DNA of 64,000 bases from a virus (taxonomy: Duplodnaviria; Caudoviricetes): positions 241,783 through 305,782 of the IMG/VR virus record IMGVR_UViG_3300033498_000048; one strand, given 5' to 3'. Numbering within the stretch: the stretch's first letter is position 1; each line of letters starts with the position of its first letter. This document shows positions 2,947 to 55,075 of this stretch, one piece after another. The position numbers and the translations under genes are program-made. Under the pieces are notes generated by a model that worked only from the letters and a program-made list of their open reading frames with translations, did no database searches and was not told the origin of the DNA.

Positions 2947-4479
2947 TCATTTGATTCTTTCTATCAAATTGATATATTCGGTTGTTTTGTTACCAACTAC
3001 TAATCCCTTTGTTCTATTGTATAACAACGGCATTACTGGTTCTAAACATTCAATAAGGAATAAAAATAATCTAAAACAATCCGAACATACTTCATGGCTA
3101 TTATCACTCAAATTCCAAGGTTTGTTGTTATCTATGTAACAATTGATAATGGTAGCATTACCTAATATTATTTTTATTGCCTCAGAGTATTTTAATTCTG
3201 TGTATTTATCGAATATGATTTGTCTATCATTAATTATATGTTCATAAAACACAGTATCAGATATTTCTGATAATTGACTACCGAACTTATTATTTAATAA
3301 CGCAATTGTTCGACTACCAATATTAATTAACTTTCCAATTAATTCATTGTTTATTTTAACAACAAAATCATCATAAGTAAAGTCTATATCATTAATAGTA
3401 TCATCCAATTTATAAGCAAAATAAAAACGTAATAATTCTGGGTCATACTTATCACCGAATTTCTTCCCTGTAATAAAAGAGCCTTTTGATTTACTCATTT
3501 TATTTTTATTAACGGTTAAAAATCCATGCGTTGCTAATTTTGTTGGTAATCTATAATTATTACCTTTTAGTATAGCTACCCAAAATAATGCGTGAAAGTA
3601 AATAATATCTTTACCTATAAATTGGATCAACTCAGTCGACTCTTCTCTCCAATCATTTTTATAATCCAGTCCGATGCCATCAAGATATTCCTTATGGCTT
3701 GAAATATATGCTATAGGAGCGTCAAACCACACATAAAAACATTTATCCAAATCTGGAATATCAAATCCAAAATATGGTTTATCCCTAGTCAAGTCCCAAT
3801 CAAGTAATGGCTCATCAAACCATTCTAATAATTTATCTTTTAATTGATTACTAATCGCTTTACTATCAATAAACTCCAATAAGGTATCTCTGAACGATTC
3901 AATGTTTAAGAAACAATGACTACTTGATTTGTTGATAATACTATGAGTGCTTTCTTTGACTACAATCGGATTAATCAAATCAATAGCAGAATAAACACTT
4001 TGGCAGTTGTCGCAACCATCACCCCATTGTGAATGACTCCCACATTTTGGGCATATCCCCTTGACTTCTCTATCAGATAAAAACTTCTTATCATACTCAT
4101 CAAATAATTGTTTTACTTCTTTTTCTATGATATATCCGTTTGCTTTTAACGTATTGAAAAAGTCAATAGTTAATTTTTCATTTTCTTTAGAATTTGTACT
4201 AGAGAAAATATCAAAATTTACACCAAATTTTTCTAAATCAAATAAATGTTCATTTCTAATCTTATCAATATAATCAACTTCTGATAAGTTTTCGTTTTGA
4301 GAGCTGATAGTAATTGCTGTTCCATGTGAATCGGACGCACATATAAAATCAACTTCATATCCATCTAATCGTTTAGCTCTAACAAAAATATCCGATTGGA
4401 TATATTCCAGTAAATGACCCAAATGAATATCACCATTTGCATAAGGCAATGCGCTGGTTACAACTATTTTATTTTTCAT
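2947..4479 (-). CDS. metG: Methionyl-tRNA synthetase (class I; lacks C-terminal tRNA-binding appendix)
   Basis: VTSALPYANGDIHLGH (HIGH), zinc knuckle CPKC...CDNC, YVWFDAPIAY, FIGKDIIYFH, KMSKSKG, DNNKPW; probable start MKNKIVV at 4479 (track extends to 4497). Confidence 0.95.
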   Translation of the reverse strand: MKNKIVVTSALPYANGDIHLGHLLEYIQSDIFVRAKRLDGYEVDFICASDSHGTAITISSQNENLSEVDYIDKIRNEHLFDLEKFGVNFDIFSSTNSKENEKLTIDFFNTLKANGYIIEKEVKQLFDEYDKKFLSDREVKGICPKCGSHSQWGDGCDNCQSVYSAIDLINPIVVKESTHSIINKSSSHCFLNIESFRDTLLEFIDSKAISNQLKDKLLEWFDEPLLDWDLTRDKPYFGFDIPDLDKCFYVWFDAPIAYISSHKEYLDGIGLDYKNDWREESTELIQFIGKDIIYFHALFWVAILKGNNYRLPTKLATHGFLTVNKNKMSKSKGSFITGKKFGDKYDPELLRFYFAYKLDDTINDIDFTYDDFVVKINNELIGKLINIGSRTIALLNNKFGSQLSEISDTVFYEHIINDRQIIFDKYTELKYSEAIKIILGNATIINCYIDNNKPWNLSDNSHEVCSDCFRLFLFLIECLEPVMPLLYNRTKGLVVGNKTTEYINLIERIK

Positions 4480-4547
4480 ATCTCTTTGTCCAAACATTAA
4501 CTCGTTATTTATTGTTAATAATAGCTTTAAAAATTTGCATTATTAAG

Positions 4548-49953: not shown

Positions 49954-50751
49954 TTAACCAACACACTTTGGAACGATACAATTAGGAGTTAATTTTAGGA
50001 TTTTTACATACTCGGCTATCAACAAATTGAAGTGGAACGTGTCTAAATTGCGTTCCAAGTGGTCATACAGCGTGAAAAAATTACTTGCCATACTAACGTT
50101 GAGCTTTAGGTTTAACGAGTCATTAACAAGCGTTAATGCTGTTTGTGGAGATGTTGTAACGATGTTGTTGGATTGATTTTTAATTCCAAGTGTGTGTACA
50201 AAAATCAATCCAATTATATTAAACAATGCAACTAATAATTGAGTTCTATGTAAACCCTTAATATTGTGGTCATCATACACATCTGAAAAATATGCAAATT
50301 GTAACCAATTTAAATTACCCACCATCCAATCTATTTGAACTATAGAATCATTGTTATATTGTGGAAAACTAGAAAATATTGTTCCAGTTGTTATTTTCTT
50401 TAGGTTGATATTAATCAATTTTGAACTTGAGTTAATAACATCAGACATTTCAATTAATATTGCTTTAAGTCTTAATTGTGATTCATTTGACGTTCTTGCT
50501 CTATTATTTAACTTTTCAATTCGTTTGTATAGTTTGGTTGGATTGATGTTTAGCTTAATTGGACATAATATCGTTTCAGATATACCTAAATCAATATCTC
50601 CAGATTCTGCTTTTTTACCAGTAGAACCTAATGGAATAAAGTTAAAATTAACAATAGGAAAAATCCTATTTAATTCACAAACATATTCGTTAATGGTTGG
50701 AGATATTAATTCCAGTTTAATTGGTGGTGTGTTGTATGTGTGACCACCCAT
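49954..50751 (-). CDS. Pol-beta-superfamily nucleotidyltransferase
   Basis: LGSTGKKAESGDIDLG (GS...DxD), VQIDWMVG. Confidence 0.75.
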   Translation of the reverse strand: MGGHTYNTPPIKLELISPTINEYVCELNRIFPIVNFNFIPLGSTGKKAESGDIDLGISETILCPIKLNINPTKLYKRIEKLNNRARTSNESQLRLKAILIEMSDVINSSSKLININLKKITTGTIFSSFPQYNNDSIVQIDWMVGNLNWLQFAYFSDVYDDHNIKGLHRTQLLVALFNIIGLIFVHTLGIKNQSNNIVTTSPQTALTLVNDSLNLKLNVSMASNFFTLYDHLERNLDTFHFNLLIAEYVKILKLTPNCIVPKCVG

Positions 50752-50972: not shown

Positions 50973-51554
50973 TCAATTCATTGTAGATTTAATATATTTT
51001 TTTGATTCAATCCACTGTTTAGTTGTCAAATCAAAAACATGAGGAACAGATTTTATTAGTACCAACGAGTGGGTACTAATAATCACTTGATTGTTTTCAG
51101 ATGCAAGTTTTAATTCTCTAGCCAATTTATATTGATTTGATAAACACAATGCTGATTCTGGTTCATCTAATAATATAACTGAATTTTCAACTGTATTTAC
51201 TATATCAACTGTAAATTGTTTTAATATTTCACCATGAGACTTCCACCTAGATAATAGTGCATTTTTTACACCAATTCCAATATCAGTACCATCTGGACTT
51301 GAATACAATTGTGCATTTTTTGTCCTAGGGTTCATCGTTTCTGTATCAAAATAATATGATTTAACGCTATTACCATCACTATTTAAAACATAGTTGATAT
51401 ATCGTTTATCATGTCGCGATAATAAGTCTAATAAAGAACTTTTACCAGTTCCCTGTCCACCGACAAATACAACCAAGTCTTGTAATTTAATGTTCAAATT
51501 GACTGGAAGACTTCGATATGGAGCTATGATTGACACCTCACTTAGAAAAATCAT
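50973..51554 (-). CDS. ABC-type (AAA_21/SMC-like) ATPase
   Basis: GGQGTGKS, SHGE signature, LLDEPESAL, ISTHS. Confidence 0.9.
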   Translation of the reverse strand: MIFLSEVSIIAPYRSLPVNLNIKLQDLVVFVGGQGTGKSSLLDLLSRHDKRYINYVLNSDGNSVKSYYFDTETMNPRTKNAQLYSSPDGTDIGIGVKNALLSRWKSHGEILKQFTVDIVNTVENSVILLDEPESALCLSNQYKLARELKLASENNQVIISTHSLVLIKSVPHVFDLTTKQWIESKKYIKSTMN

Positions 51555-51904
51555 TTTACTATCCTCAAATGTGGTCGTTTCTTTGTTTTTTGTGGTTCTA
51601 TTGGTAAATCGTTAGGTTTGAAGTGTAATCCAATATCTGGATTATCTTTATCATAAATTGCTAAGACATCTTTATTAATATCAAATTCCAAATCATAATG
51701 TTTACGATTAAATGATACTCCTATTTTGACCAATCCATCGTTGAAATTGACATACCCAACAGCATGGTCTGATAAGTTTAATGTGATATTACCATTATCA
51801 GAAAGGTAATTCAAATACGGAGGACAATTTGAACATACAATATGTGGAGTCAATTTATGTTTAATACAATACAAATACATACCTTCAACTAAAACATTTT
51901 TCAT
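51551..51904 (-). CDS. sspB: SspB-like ClpXP specificity-enhancing factor
   Basis: Y.YC...LTPHIV...GNITLNLSDHAV...VLAIY.KDN..IGL.F and C-terminal RPHLRIVK (cf. E. coli RPALRVVK). Confidence 0.85.
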   Translation of the reverse strand: MKNVLVEGMYLYCIKHKLTPHIVCSNCPPYLNYLSDNGNITLNLSDHAVGYVNFNDGLVKIGVSFNRKHYDLEFDINKDVLAIYDKDNPDIGLHFKPNDLPIEPQKTKKRPHLRIVK

Positions 51905-51920
51905 TACAATACCATCCTTA

Positions 51921-52464
51921 TTATCGTTTCATATAAATTACTACTCTAACATCGTCTTCATGGACAACTTCATTATCATCCACATACGAGCTAATCCCAT
52001 TAATTACACTATAGGCTTCTCCTGGAATACCATCATTCATATTGGTATCAATTTTGAATCCATATTTACCATACAGTTTAAATAGTCCACCATCTCCATC
52101 ACGGAATGCGAAACAATCTAATCGTTTTGCTCCATTCTCGATTGCACTTTGCATTATAGCATTTCCAGACGAACCCTGTGAACTGAATACTGATACCAAT
52201 TCATTACCATGTAAAGCATATCCAGAGCTATTGTTATCACCTAAATAACATTCCATCTCATTATACTCACGCACTGAATATATTGTTAGTGTGTCCAATC
52301 CTTTTCAGCATCACCCCTAGCAATATCATTGGACTTTATCTTACTAATTGCAGTGGCAAATGTCCTACCATCGGTTTTGTTAAAACTATCTCCACTCGTT
52401 AAAGCTTGTCCTTTTTTAAGTTCCATATCAGCAAAGTCTCTTTAATGTATTCAGAAAAACTCAT
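51921..52464 (-). pseudogene. Frameshifted GNAT-like internal-protein gene
   Basis: MSFSEYIKE leader at 52464; two one-base shortfalls (about 52440 and about 52302) link it to the track ORF with ELVSVFS...AIENGAKRLDCF...LYGKYGF. Confidence 0.6.
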
Positions 52465-52476
52465 ATAGTTCATTTA

Positions 52477-53145
52477 TTACATTCCATTTGATTGTTCATA
52501 TTGGTATATCACATCAAGTACCTTGGACAATATACACTTTGTTGATATGAAATCATTGTTAGATTTCATATACAATCGCTTATTCACTTCTATCATAATA
52601 GACATGACAGCAATATTATTTATATACTGTGTTGGAATGATACTTCCAGAATATGGGACATTAATTCCAATAGTGTAATTTGAATCAAGCAATACCCCAA
52701 CAACATCACAAACTAATTCTGGAGGTGTTTGATTAGTTGTTCCAATACGAATATCTGGCGAATTATTATCTCCAGTAAATGAGTGACAATCTACAACAAC
52801 AACGATTGGAAAATAACATAATGCCTTTGCTACAAGTTTGTTTAATTCATTGTGCCATTTGTTGTAAATGTTTTCGATAATCCAATCTTTATCAACGACT
52901 TCAATTGGATTATCATTAGCACCCTTTGTATAACAAATTCCATGTCCATCCTTGTATAGTGGCTCTATATCATCTGGGAAACGTTCAACATCACATACGA
53001 ATCTTGAAACATCTTGGACCATAAGGTCAGCACCTTCGTGATGGAATAATAACTGTGTTGACCAGTCGGTTAATGCGTCAATATCACTTGATTCAATGTT
53101 TCGTCCCAATGTATTTACACCTGAATGTGGAATGTGTAATATCAT
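52477..53145 (-). CDS. N-formylglutamate amidohydrolase-family protein
   Basis: ILHIPHSG, SRFVCDVER, VVDCHSF, PDIRIG, NVPYSG, IMIEVNKRLY; start moved to MILHIP. Confidence 0.85.
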   Translation of the reverse strand: MILHIPHSGVNTLGRNIESSDIDALTDWSTQLLFHHEGADLMVQDVSRFVCDVERFPDDIEPLYKDGHGICYTKGANDNPIEVVDKDWIIENIYNKWHNELNKLVAKALCYFPIVVVVDCHSFTGDNNSPDIRIGTTNQTPPELVCDVVGVLLDSNYTIGINVPYSGSIIPTQYINNIAVMSIMIEVNKRLYMKSNNDFISTKCILSKVLDVIYQYEQSNGM

Positions 53146-53155
53146 ATCATTAATC

Positions 53156-53389
53156 CTATTTTGTGGTTGGAATGTTAATACAGCATAATCCATATATGAA
53201 ACCAAACAGTTCACAATACGAATCGACTGGATGTATAAACTTATTACTATTGCGTAGCTGATACAACCAAACAATAAATCCTATAACTAATATGTATTGT
53301 AATGTTAATATTATTAATATTGTTACAACTAAACATATAAAACAATTAATTAAAATTTCTTTTGATACTTTGAATTTAGGTTTTATCAT
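53156..53389 (-). CDS. Small membrane protein
   Basis: Long hydrophobic segment. Confidence 0.45.
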   Translation of the reverse strand: MIKPKFKVSKEILINCFICLVVTILIILTLQYILVIGFIVWLYQLRNSNKFIHPVDSYCELFGFIYGLCCINIPTTK

Positions 53390-53573
53390 ATGATTCCAAT
53401 GTTTTTAAGTATTCAGTAGCAAACTGAATCTGCTCATAGCAATATTCAATGTATGCTTCAATTGCTTGTTGACTAGCCGATTCATTAAACTCTGTAAAGT
53501 CGCCAAACCCATCTCCTACAAATAGAATACCATTTTCGCTTTTTTGTATTGAGTTAATCCAATTGGTTATCAT
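53376..53573 (-). CDS. Hypothetical acidic protein
   Basis: 65 aa, coupled to neighbours. Confidence 0.5.
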   Translation of the reverse strand: MITNWINSIQKSENGILFVGDGFGDFTEFNESASQQAIEAYIEYCYEQIQFATEYLKTLESYDKT

Positions 53574-55075
53574 ATAATGTCCCTCGATAGTTTTAATAAA
53601 GTATCATTAATTGGTTGTGTGTCGTCTGGGAGCCAGTTTCTTATGCGACCAACTGCGATATTGAGTTTTTGTAACGTGTTAATGTCCTTAAAATACAAAT
53701 GAATTGTACCCTTCATGTATATTTTGACTGTAAAATGTTTTGATTCCATTTTTATGCCAGCAAAAAAGTTATTAGCTTTAATCGAATTTACAATTCCATT
53801 AGTTAAATCTGGAATATTGCCTAGCAATCTGTCTAGTACCATATCAACATCATTGAGTGTGGATTCCCCGTGATAATCAAAATCTAATTTGTTATTATAA
53901 CTCAATTTTACAATATTTGGTAATACAACTCGCCTTTTCGTGAATATTGGTTTATCGGTAGTTTTATTCCATCCAATTTCACCAACAACTGTTTTAGTAT
54001 TACTTTTCCAACCTTCATAATGATTTCTATTATCTGGATAATACTTTGTGAACGTATCAAATATATCCAATAACGTGTGATTAAAAATTGCAATTGAATT
54101 ATCAAGTAATTCTTGTAAGAAGTACCTAATATTGTGTTCTGTAAATTCAAGTTTTGATATGTTGGTTCGTTTCTTTTCAAACTCACTCCTAACTGCACCA
54201 GTCATCAATTTTGAAAACTCTGAAACAGTCCACACGCCACCCCATGCAGAATCACGCAACGAGTCTAACTCGCTATTCAATTCTCGTTTAATATCATATT
54301 GTATTTCATATGCTGGAGATTTATATTGCGATGTTATCATTAAAGATTTGTAATATGTTGCTTTAGCTTTAGCAATACAAGCTTCCCTAGCCGAATTGAC
54401 TGCTAAGTTGTAATAGTTGACTAATTCAGATATTCTTGATTGTTTTATTGCTAATTGGTTTTGTAAGCTTGAATCCATTGCAGAATATTCAGGCTTAGAT
54501 TCTGATAATGAACTCAAATCAAAGAAGTCTTCAGCATAATTAGCAACTTTAACTAAATGTATTAACACAACTTCAACATCTGTAGAACGTTCACTATCGG
54601 TAAACGCATTTTCAATGTATTCAATTGTGTTTGTTGGATTAGATTCAATGATTGAAATTAATAACTTCCGTTCTTTTGAATATGGGTTTCGTATAGATTC
54701 CGCGTTTAATAATGCAATGACTTGTCCAGAATAAATCAAATTATACGCTCGCAATACATGATTAACCCCAACACTAAATGGAGGATTCATAACAATACAA
54801 TCATATAAAGTTGGACTCGAAAAATTCATAAAATCAAAACCAACGACATTACAACCCATTCCCCTTAATGAGTTTTGTAATACTGGTTCAATTTCTATAC
54901 AATCTATTGTTATTGTGTAATTGTTATATCTTTTAAATTCCTTTATTGCTTTAACAAGATTACCTGACCCAGCACTTGGTTCCAATATCGTTTTAGACTG
55001 TGGTTGTATTAGTTTAGCCATCTTTGTAGCTAACCAATCTGGAGTTGGGTAAAATTCAGTATCATTAATCGACAT
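53570..55075 (-). CDS. Adenine methyltransferase with DUF4942-like C-terminal domain
   Basis: EFYPTP, ILEPSAGSG, IVMNPPF, ALLNAESIRNP; C-term HYEGWKSN, YMKGTIHLYF. Confidence 0.85.
   Translation of the reverse strand: MSINDTEFYPTPDWLATKMAKLIQPQSKTILEPSAGSGNLVKAIKEFKRYNNYTITIDCIEIEPVLQNSLRGMGCNVVGFDFMNFSSPTLYDCIVMNPPFSVGVNHVLRAYNLIYSGQVIALLNAESIRNPYSKERKLLISIIESNPTNTIEYIENAFTDSERSTDVEVVLIHLVKVANYAEDFFDLSSLSESKPEYSAMDSSLQNQLAIKQSRISELVNYYNLAVNSAREACIAKAKATYYKSLMITSQYKSPAYEIQYDIKRELNSELDSLRDSAWGGVWTVSEFSKLMTGAVRSEFEKKRTNISKLEFTEHNIRYFLQELLDNSIAIFNHTLLDIFDTFTKYYPDNRNHYEGWKSNTKTVVGEIGWNKTTDKPIFTKRRVVLPNIVKLSYNNKLDFDYHGESTLNDVDMVLDRLLGNIPDLTNGIVNSIKANNFFAGIKMESKHFTVKIYMKGTIHLYFKDINTLQKLNIAVGRIRNWLPDDTQPINDTLLKLSRDII

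Follow-up and report, generated by a model that had tools for sequence, protein, structure and literature searches.

The stretch of DNA analysed here (the window, 64 kb) is the final part of a 305,782-bp record of a complete virus, which has terminal repeats and a G+C content of 31%. On the minus strand of the window, an open reading frame (ORF) of 117 codons plus a TGA stop occupies positions 51551..51904, begins with ATG and encodes a product ending in KKRPHLRIVK, as given in the preliminary description; it is identified as SspB-like from the ORF list together with matches to SspB profiles and PDB sequences, an AlphaFold model and Foldseek comparisons. A ribosome-binding site (AAGGA, read from the sequence at 51915-51919 of the same strand) lies 10 nt upstream of the ATG, and the stop codon of the preceding gene (51921-51923) is found 16 nt before the start. 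At the other end, the TGA (51551-51553) overlaps the ATG (51552-51554) of an ORF for a 193-residue, minimal ABC-type ATPase (50973..51554, minus strand; Pfam AAA_15/AAA_21). The plus strand reads tcat at 51551-51554, i.e. ATGA on the minus strand, and the 4-bp overlap claimed earlier is therefore real. Scanning the region for promoters returned 39 matches against 40.7 expected from shuffled sequences, i.e. no better than the shuffles, and a scan for terminators returned none.

The product is organized as a folded substrate-binding domain with the SspB fold (residues 1-98; 51611..51904, minus strand), delimited by pLDDT values of 93-98 and by the rmsd of the Foldseek superpositions, the N-terminal helix of which (residues 1-15; 51860..51904, minus strand; DSSP helix 2-15) forms the predicted dimer interface in a homodimer model. 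It is followed by a disordered tether of 17 residues (residues 96-112; 51569..51619, minus strand), with pLDDT of 51-63 and no secondary structure, and, at the extreme C-terminus, by RPHLRIVK (residues 110-117; 51554..51577, minus strand), a putative ClpX-binding (XB) tail, which aligns with RPALRVVK of Escherichia coli SspB.

The SspB core pattern that had been noticed in the sequence alone is recovered by independent searches, far above chance. With phmmer, SspB chains were the only PDB sequences matched, the full-length E. coli protein (8et3_Y, from entry 8ET3) giving E=3.6e-7 in two pieces, namely the core (residues 5-98 against 13-107) and the tail (RPHLRIVK against RPALRVVK). Profiles of the SspB family, which had been proposed as a check on the understanding that the lack of any match would refute the idea, match as well in Pfam, PHROGs and NCBIfam: Pfam SspB (PF04386) gives 17.2 bits and E=5e-3, its gathering score of 27 not being reached; PHROG 8945, ‘stringent starvation protein SspB-like’, gives E=1.3e-6 over residues 3-90; and nine NCBIfam models (PRK11798) of the ‘ClpXP protease specificity-enhancing factor’ match, the best being NF008769 (E=6.1e-10) with 39.2 bits against an equivalog cut-off of 135. 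All of the profile matches lie below the curated cut-offs and, therefore, the protein is not an equivalog of bacterial SspB. Conversely, a profile built from the phage protein and seven relatives recovers 1,932 SspB-family proteins, the named bacterial ones at about 1e-35. PADLOC returned no match for the SspB-like protein.

The structural comparison points the same way. The AlphaFold2 model, computed without templates from an SspB-rich alignment of 42 rows, has a pLDDT of 88.6, with 93-98 in the core and the last ~20 residues disordered. Its 13 best PDB matches in Foldseek are all SspB of E. coli or Haemophilus influenzae (TM 0.69-0.80), the superpositions on 1OU8, 1OX9, 1YFN and 8ET3 having an rmsd of 1.7-2.8 Å over ~100 residues, and 14 viral models in BFVD have the same fold at E<=1e-3. 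SspB-alpha of alphaproteobacteria (Caulobacter; 2QAS, 2QAZ) shares the overall fold and the adaptor role, but is more distant from the phage protein (Foldseek E ~1e-2, TM 0.55-0.60, 12-14% identity). The family invariants P20, L42, N43 and F65 are kept, as is the AIY strand. The phage protein is thus a true, although very divergent, SspB homologue of the beta/gammaproteobacterial type.

How isolated the sequence is becomes apparent from the search for relatives. When 1.84 billion representative proteins were searched exhaustively with HMMER, one close relative appeared, P0002, a protein of 126 aa that is 56% identical, ends in KKRHLKLVK and is found on two small metagenome contigs. The further relatives are few and show ~30% identity; they are encoded on phage-like contigs and match Pfam SspB themselves; to every relative other than P0002 the identity is 25-32%. 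The matches P0003 and P0008 are long repetitive proteins and were set aside as spurious. Neither megablast with the 3-kb region nor tblastn with the SspB-like protein gave a match among 50,697 phage records, from which the phage's own genome was perhaps excluded; a word-indexed protein search returned the query itself alone, and a pattern scan of viral contigs returned no relative. At 117 aa, the protein is the shortest among 124 relatives, the median length of which is 170. In a quick tree, it shares with P0002 a very long stem that cannot be placed in any bacterial clade, whereas the copy of Pseudomonas phage pf16 groups with gammaproteobacterial SspB and that of a Ralstonia phage falls inside Burkholderiales, so that these last two copies look host-derived.

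With respect to bacterial SspB (E. coli, H. influenzae; PF04386; 1OX9, 1OU8, 1YFN, 8ET3), the phage protein has the same fold (TM 0.7-0.8), a predicted dimer through the N-terminal helix, a disordered tether and a C-terminal XB motif. On the other hand, it is only 24-26% identical, has 117 residues instead of 165 and a tether of 17 residues against 57 in the Salmonella protein, is without the first 8 residues and the V-x-V-P loop, replaces the R15/D23 pair by E/K and R75 by S, and is encoded by a phage gene with no sspA adjacent to it. Several positions that are nearly invariant in bacterial SspB are changed, namely R64S (R75 in E. coli), ARF to VSF, VP to FD and YARENG to YDKDNP. In the place of the V-x-V-P loop there is a C-x-N-C segment common to the phage protein and P0002; it corresponds to residues 24-27 (51826-51835, minus strand), within VCSNCPPY in the former and ICMNCPEY in the latter, the two cysteines being conserved in both. 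The conserved parts of SspB are the dimer interface and the groove that binds the ssrA peptide (PMC9963277), and changes at family-conserved positions therefore imply that the peptide specificity may be altered. Recognition of ssrA itself may have been lost.

The predicted dimer interface is also modified. When two copies of the protein were modelled together, the median score was 0.56 against 0.00 for the best control, a value that may reflect the model's memory of the SspB dimers that have been solved; of the proteins with solved structures, 20 of the 30 that are pairs and 1 of the 23 that are single chains attain that mark. Contacts agreed completely (100%) between homodimer runs, with a partner pLDDT of at least 79. 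In the model, the interface comprises residues 1, 4-5, 7-9, 11-12 and 15 together with 90-92, with residues 7 and 15 touching across the subunits. The score is best taken as a measure of likeness of the predicted complex to solved SspB dimers rather than as proof of dimerization. Positions 7, 11 and 15 correspond to R15, E19 and D23 of E. coli SspB, and R/E/D is the combination found in 117 of the 124 relatives; E7/L11/K15 occurs in the phage protein and P0002 only. The E7/K15 pair would represent a compensated swap of charges, which would disfavour the formation of mixed dimers with the SspB of the host.

At the C-terminus, in turn, it is conservation that prevails. LRIVK (residues 113-117) fits the XB type, L-[RK]-[VIL]-[VI]-K, at the extreme end of the chain and after a disordered linker, and its L113 and V116 align with L161 and V164 of the E. 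coli protein, which are said to be the main ClpX-contacting residues (work attributed to Wah, 2003, and Park, 2007). An end of this type is present in 113 of the 124 relatives, e.g. HLKVVK and RLKIVK, and, among the 968 ORFs of at least 50 aa in the phage, only in the SspB-like protein and in one ORF of 55 aa. Between the phage protein and P0002 the tail is retained (HLKLVK in the latter) and the tether differs in both length and sequence, which argues for selection acting on the tail. The intact ClpX-binding tail of the preliminary description therefore holds at the level of the motif and its conservation. From the last column of the core to the XB pentapeptide, the tether measures 17 residues, fewer than in any other member of the family sample, the median being 66 in the 113 relatives with such an end and bacterial-type sequences ranging from 31 to 79. 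Other phage and phage-like copies also tend to have short tethers (24 residues in pf16 and NCTB, 29 in Ralstonia phage FLC4-3B), and in some phage SspB-like proteins (Xanthomonas phage RTH11, P0004, P0005) the XB-type end is missing altogether.

Phage SspB-like genes have already been published and annotated, in phages of Erwinia, Xanthomonas, Aeromonas and Pseudomonas among others, and the gene under study is a new, minimal and divergent example of them. The protein gp18 of the T4-like Pseudomonas phage pf16 (PMC5587285, 2017) is likewise short (128 aa, with a 24-residue tether and the tail KKPTLRVVK), and a deletion in its disordered region was pointed out by the authors (PMC5587285). However, gp18 is close to the SspB of its host and keeps the R/E/D interface, whereas the protein described here is far more diverged. 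Among jumbo phages, SspB-like proteins are represented by gp039 of Erwinia phage RAY, published as such in 2023 (PMC10299810), gp38 of Erwinia phage AH06, gp94 of Ralstonia phage FLC4-3B, the protein of Xanthomonas phage RTH11 and the members of PHROG 8945. They come from large phages of Proteobacteria, have the SspB fold, most of them with an XB-type end, belong mostly to nucleus-forming (chimallivirus) or other jumbo lineages and are often longer or provided with extra regions. The present protein differs in being encoded by a T4-like jumbo phage and in its minimal architecture, and tblastn with its sequence finds none of them. A search of the literature found no functional test of any phage SspB-like protein.

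The ATPase encoded immediately downstream has intact Walker A, signature, Walker B and H-loop motifs, and resembles only the ATPase heads of the defence proteins AriA, PtuA, GajA and OLD (PADLOC E down to 1e-14), with no effector domain attached. It is a member of a small family of ~190-200 aa proteins, with about 28 homologues of 190-218 aa found on phage-like contigs. A role as a decoy or in anti-defence is conceivable. The adjacency of an SspB-like gene and this ATPase recurs only beside the gene for P0002, where the ATPase is 63% identical, and is absent from 4 other contexts of the ATPase and from 3 other contexts of SspB-like genes; the idea of a module made of SspB and an ABC-type ATPase was, for this reason, rejected. 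The ATPase is probably context rather than a functional partner, and the 4-bp overlap is best read as the dense gene packing of phages, with no special functional meaning.

The virus is a T4-like jumbo phage; the record contains genes for a T4-type baseplate and tail, DNA and RNA ligases, a methionyl-tRNA synthetase and 17 tRNAs. ClpP, the zinc finger of ClpX and tmRNA were searched for in the phage genome and all found absent; weak matches to tmRNA were rejected, being located inside the cluster of 17 tRNA genes. With none of these encoded by the phage, the ClpXP of the host is the target to be considered, and the earlier proposal that the phage acts on host ClpXP remains the natural reading for a complete jumbo phage that carries neither ClpX nor ClpP of its own. 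The purposes suggested with it as examples, i.e. the degradation of defence proteins or the clearance of stalled-ribosome products, are guesses. As to the host, a gamma- or betaproteobacterium had been suggested. The beta/gamma type of the protein (Foldseek E ~1e-7, against 1e-2 for the alpha type) lends this weak support; the tree cannot place the gene. According to PMC7804408, the sspB gene occurs in most Proteobacteria and in no other group. The nearest cultured relatives of the phage, as judged from the baseplate wedge protein (~40% identity), mostly infect Proteobacteria (Stenotrophomonas, Variovorax, Xanthomonas, Acidovorax, Rhizobium and Methylophilales), with a few Synechococcus phages. 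Taken together, the distribution of sspB, the type of the protein and the hosts of the baseplate relatives, three weak lines, make a proteobacterial host plausible. In a search of sequencing runs, the whole stretch was found in one run only, a microbial-mat metagenome that is possibly the source sample, and small shares of it in four freshwater runs; no RNA run is among those found.

The function of SspB in bacteria is established (PMC9963277), and it offers the frame in which the phage protein can be considered. With a probability that we would put at about 60%, the latter is a dimeric adaptor, the tails of which tether it to host ClpX while a peptide-bearing client is presented to the pore. 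In such a mechanism, the protein would homodimerize through the N-terminal helices, the two tails would dock on the N-terminal zinc-binding domains of the host ClpX hexamer, and the folded domains would hold the short peptide of the client above the ClpX pore, allowing ClpXP to degrade the client at a lower concentration, as happens with bacterial SspB. The peptide could be the host ssrA tag, in which case truncated proteins would be cleared during infection, or it could be a different one chosen by the phage, a possibility raised by the changes at several family-conserved positions of the core. With its charge-swapped interface, the phage protein would not mix with host SspB, and a tether of 17 residues would bring the client unusually near to ClpX.

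The same features could also be those of a competitor or anti-adaptor, the tail of which would dock on the ClpX N-domains with no productive delivery, so that host SspB and other substrates or adaptors that depend on these domains would be blocked and phage proteins protected from ClpXP. An intact XB tail is what such an inhibitor would need; a tether of 17 residues, where the median is 66, could preclude a correct placement above the pore; the substitutions of family-conserved core residues and an interface that would avoid mixed dimers with host SspB are in keeping with it too, and competitive inhibition is what the authors of the pf16 study proposed for the phage SspB (PMC5587285). However, a bare tail would suffice for simple competition, whereas the phage protein maintains the whole folded peptide-binding domain, dimeric in the model, with L42-N43, P20, F65 and the AIY strand, which a pure competitor does not need and which favours the adaptor. 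Furthermore, substrate-free SspB binds ClpX weakly (PMC9963277), so that an empty adaptor would make a poor blocker. On balance, competition appears a rather unlikely explanation, if the best of the alternatives.

Less probable still, and quite doubtful in our opinion, is that the SspB fold has been reused away from ClpX, e.g. as a peptide-binding chaperone or as a regulator that sequesters a host protein, and that the tail is an inherited relic. Extreme divergence, with 25-32% identity to all relatives but one, a groove that appears remodelled and the existence of SspB-like proteins with no XB-type end in RTH11, P0004 and P0005 would be compatible with such a change of use. It is difficult to reconcile with the tail being, in the comparison with P0002, the best-conserved element outside the core, next to a tether that varies freely, and with its location at the very end of the chain, which 113 of 124 relatives share; one would not expect a relic to retain L-[RK]-[ILV]-V-K in a phage gene that is AT-rich and evolves fast. 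Finally, a decaying or non-functional remnant of a gene acquired from a host, which a single close relative among 1.84 billion representatives and the shortest protein of the family might bring to mind, is very improbable given the intact frame, the good ribosome-binding site, the confident and compact AlphaFold model, and P0002, which at 56% identity keeps the length class, the fold determinants, the interface substitutions and the tail, a sign of purifying selection.

Within the adaptor reading, a more daring version can be put forward only tentatively, as it seems to us unlikely in its full form: the SspB copies of phages, with the present one at the extreme, would be orthogonal adaptors that combine an insulated interface, a minimal tether and a remodelled groove for a degron chosen by the phage. 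If this were true, host ClpXP would be retargeted during infection to particular host proteins, e.g. those with defence or regulatory functions. Little is understood of how large phages deal with the proteolysis of the host, and SspB-like genes recur in many jumbo phages. Being the most stripped-down version found here, i.e. a core, a 17-residue tether and a tail, the protein is a convenient minimal construct with which delivery to or block of ClpXP, the identity of the recognized peptide and the insulation from the host adaptor could be addressed. For the 306-kb phage itself, the gene adds weak evidence for a proteobacterial host, and it opens no new category alone.

Other genes of the window deserve a brief mention. 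On the minus strand, as are all those that follow, 2947-4497 encodes the phage methionyl-tRNA synthetase, which is ~41% identical to the enzymes of Escherichia, Acinetobacter and Pseudomonas phages. No Pfam or PHROG profile matches the 265-aa protein encoded at 49954-50751; its ESM Atlas structure places it in a large family, restricted to viruses, the fold of which is that of polymerase-beta-like nucleotidyltransferases (TM 0.92-0.95 to viral clusters), and a G-S-x(9)-D-x-D motif is found close to its N-terminus. The upstream neighbour of the SspB-like gene (51921-52298, 125 aa) has phrog_2563, of unknown function, as its sole match (E=5e-10); a Q/R-x-x-G-x-A-like stretch in it recalls GNAT acetyltransferases, with no Pfam match in support. 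The minus-strand block of the SspB-like gene also includes an auxiliary metabolic gene of an unusual kind, for a protein of the N-formylglutamate amidohydrolase family (52477-53274; PF05013, E=2e-35). A 501-aa protein (53570-55075) is made of an N-terminal DNA-methyltransferase domain and DUF4942 (PF13708, E=2e-32; phrog_32703). Of the sigma-70-like matches in the region, the best (TTGACA-18-TAAAAT, 55498-55469) is situated upstream of this last gene.

The survey of phage collections also brought up some annotations that call for attention. Two sspB matches, in AGRM01000002.1 and CAKLQH020000054.1, are not phage genes, each of them being part of a normal sspA-sspB operon; the former record is a contig of a Salmonella chromosome and the latter is bacterial DNA labelled ‘Acinetobacter phage MD-2021a’. 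In phage NCTB (LT598654.1), the SspB-like gene at ~1440-1850 appears to be mis-annotated, a single continuous frame of 136 aa ending in KKPTLSVVK spanning two coding sequences annotated as hypothetical (locus 1320-1505, 1570-1917).
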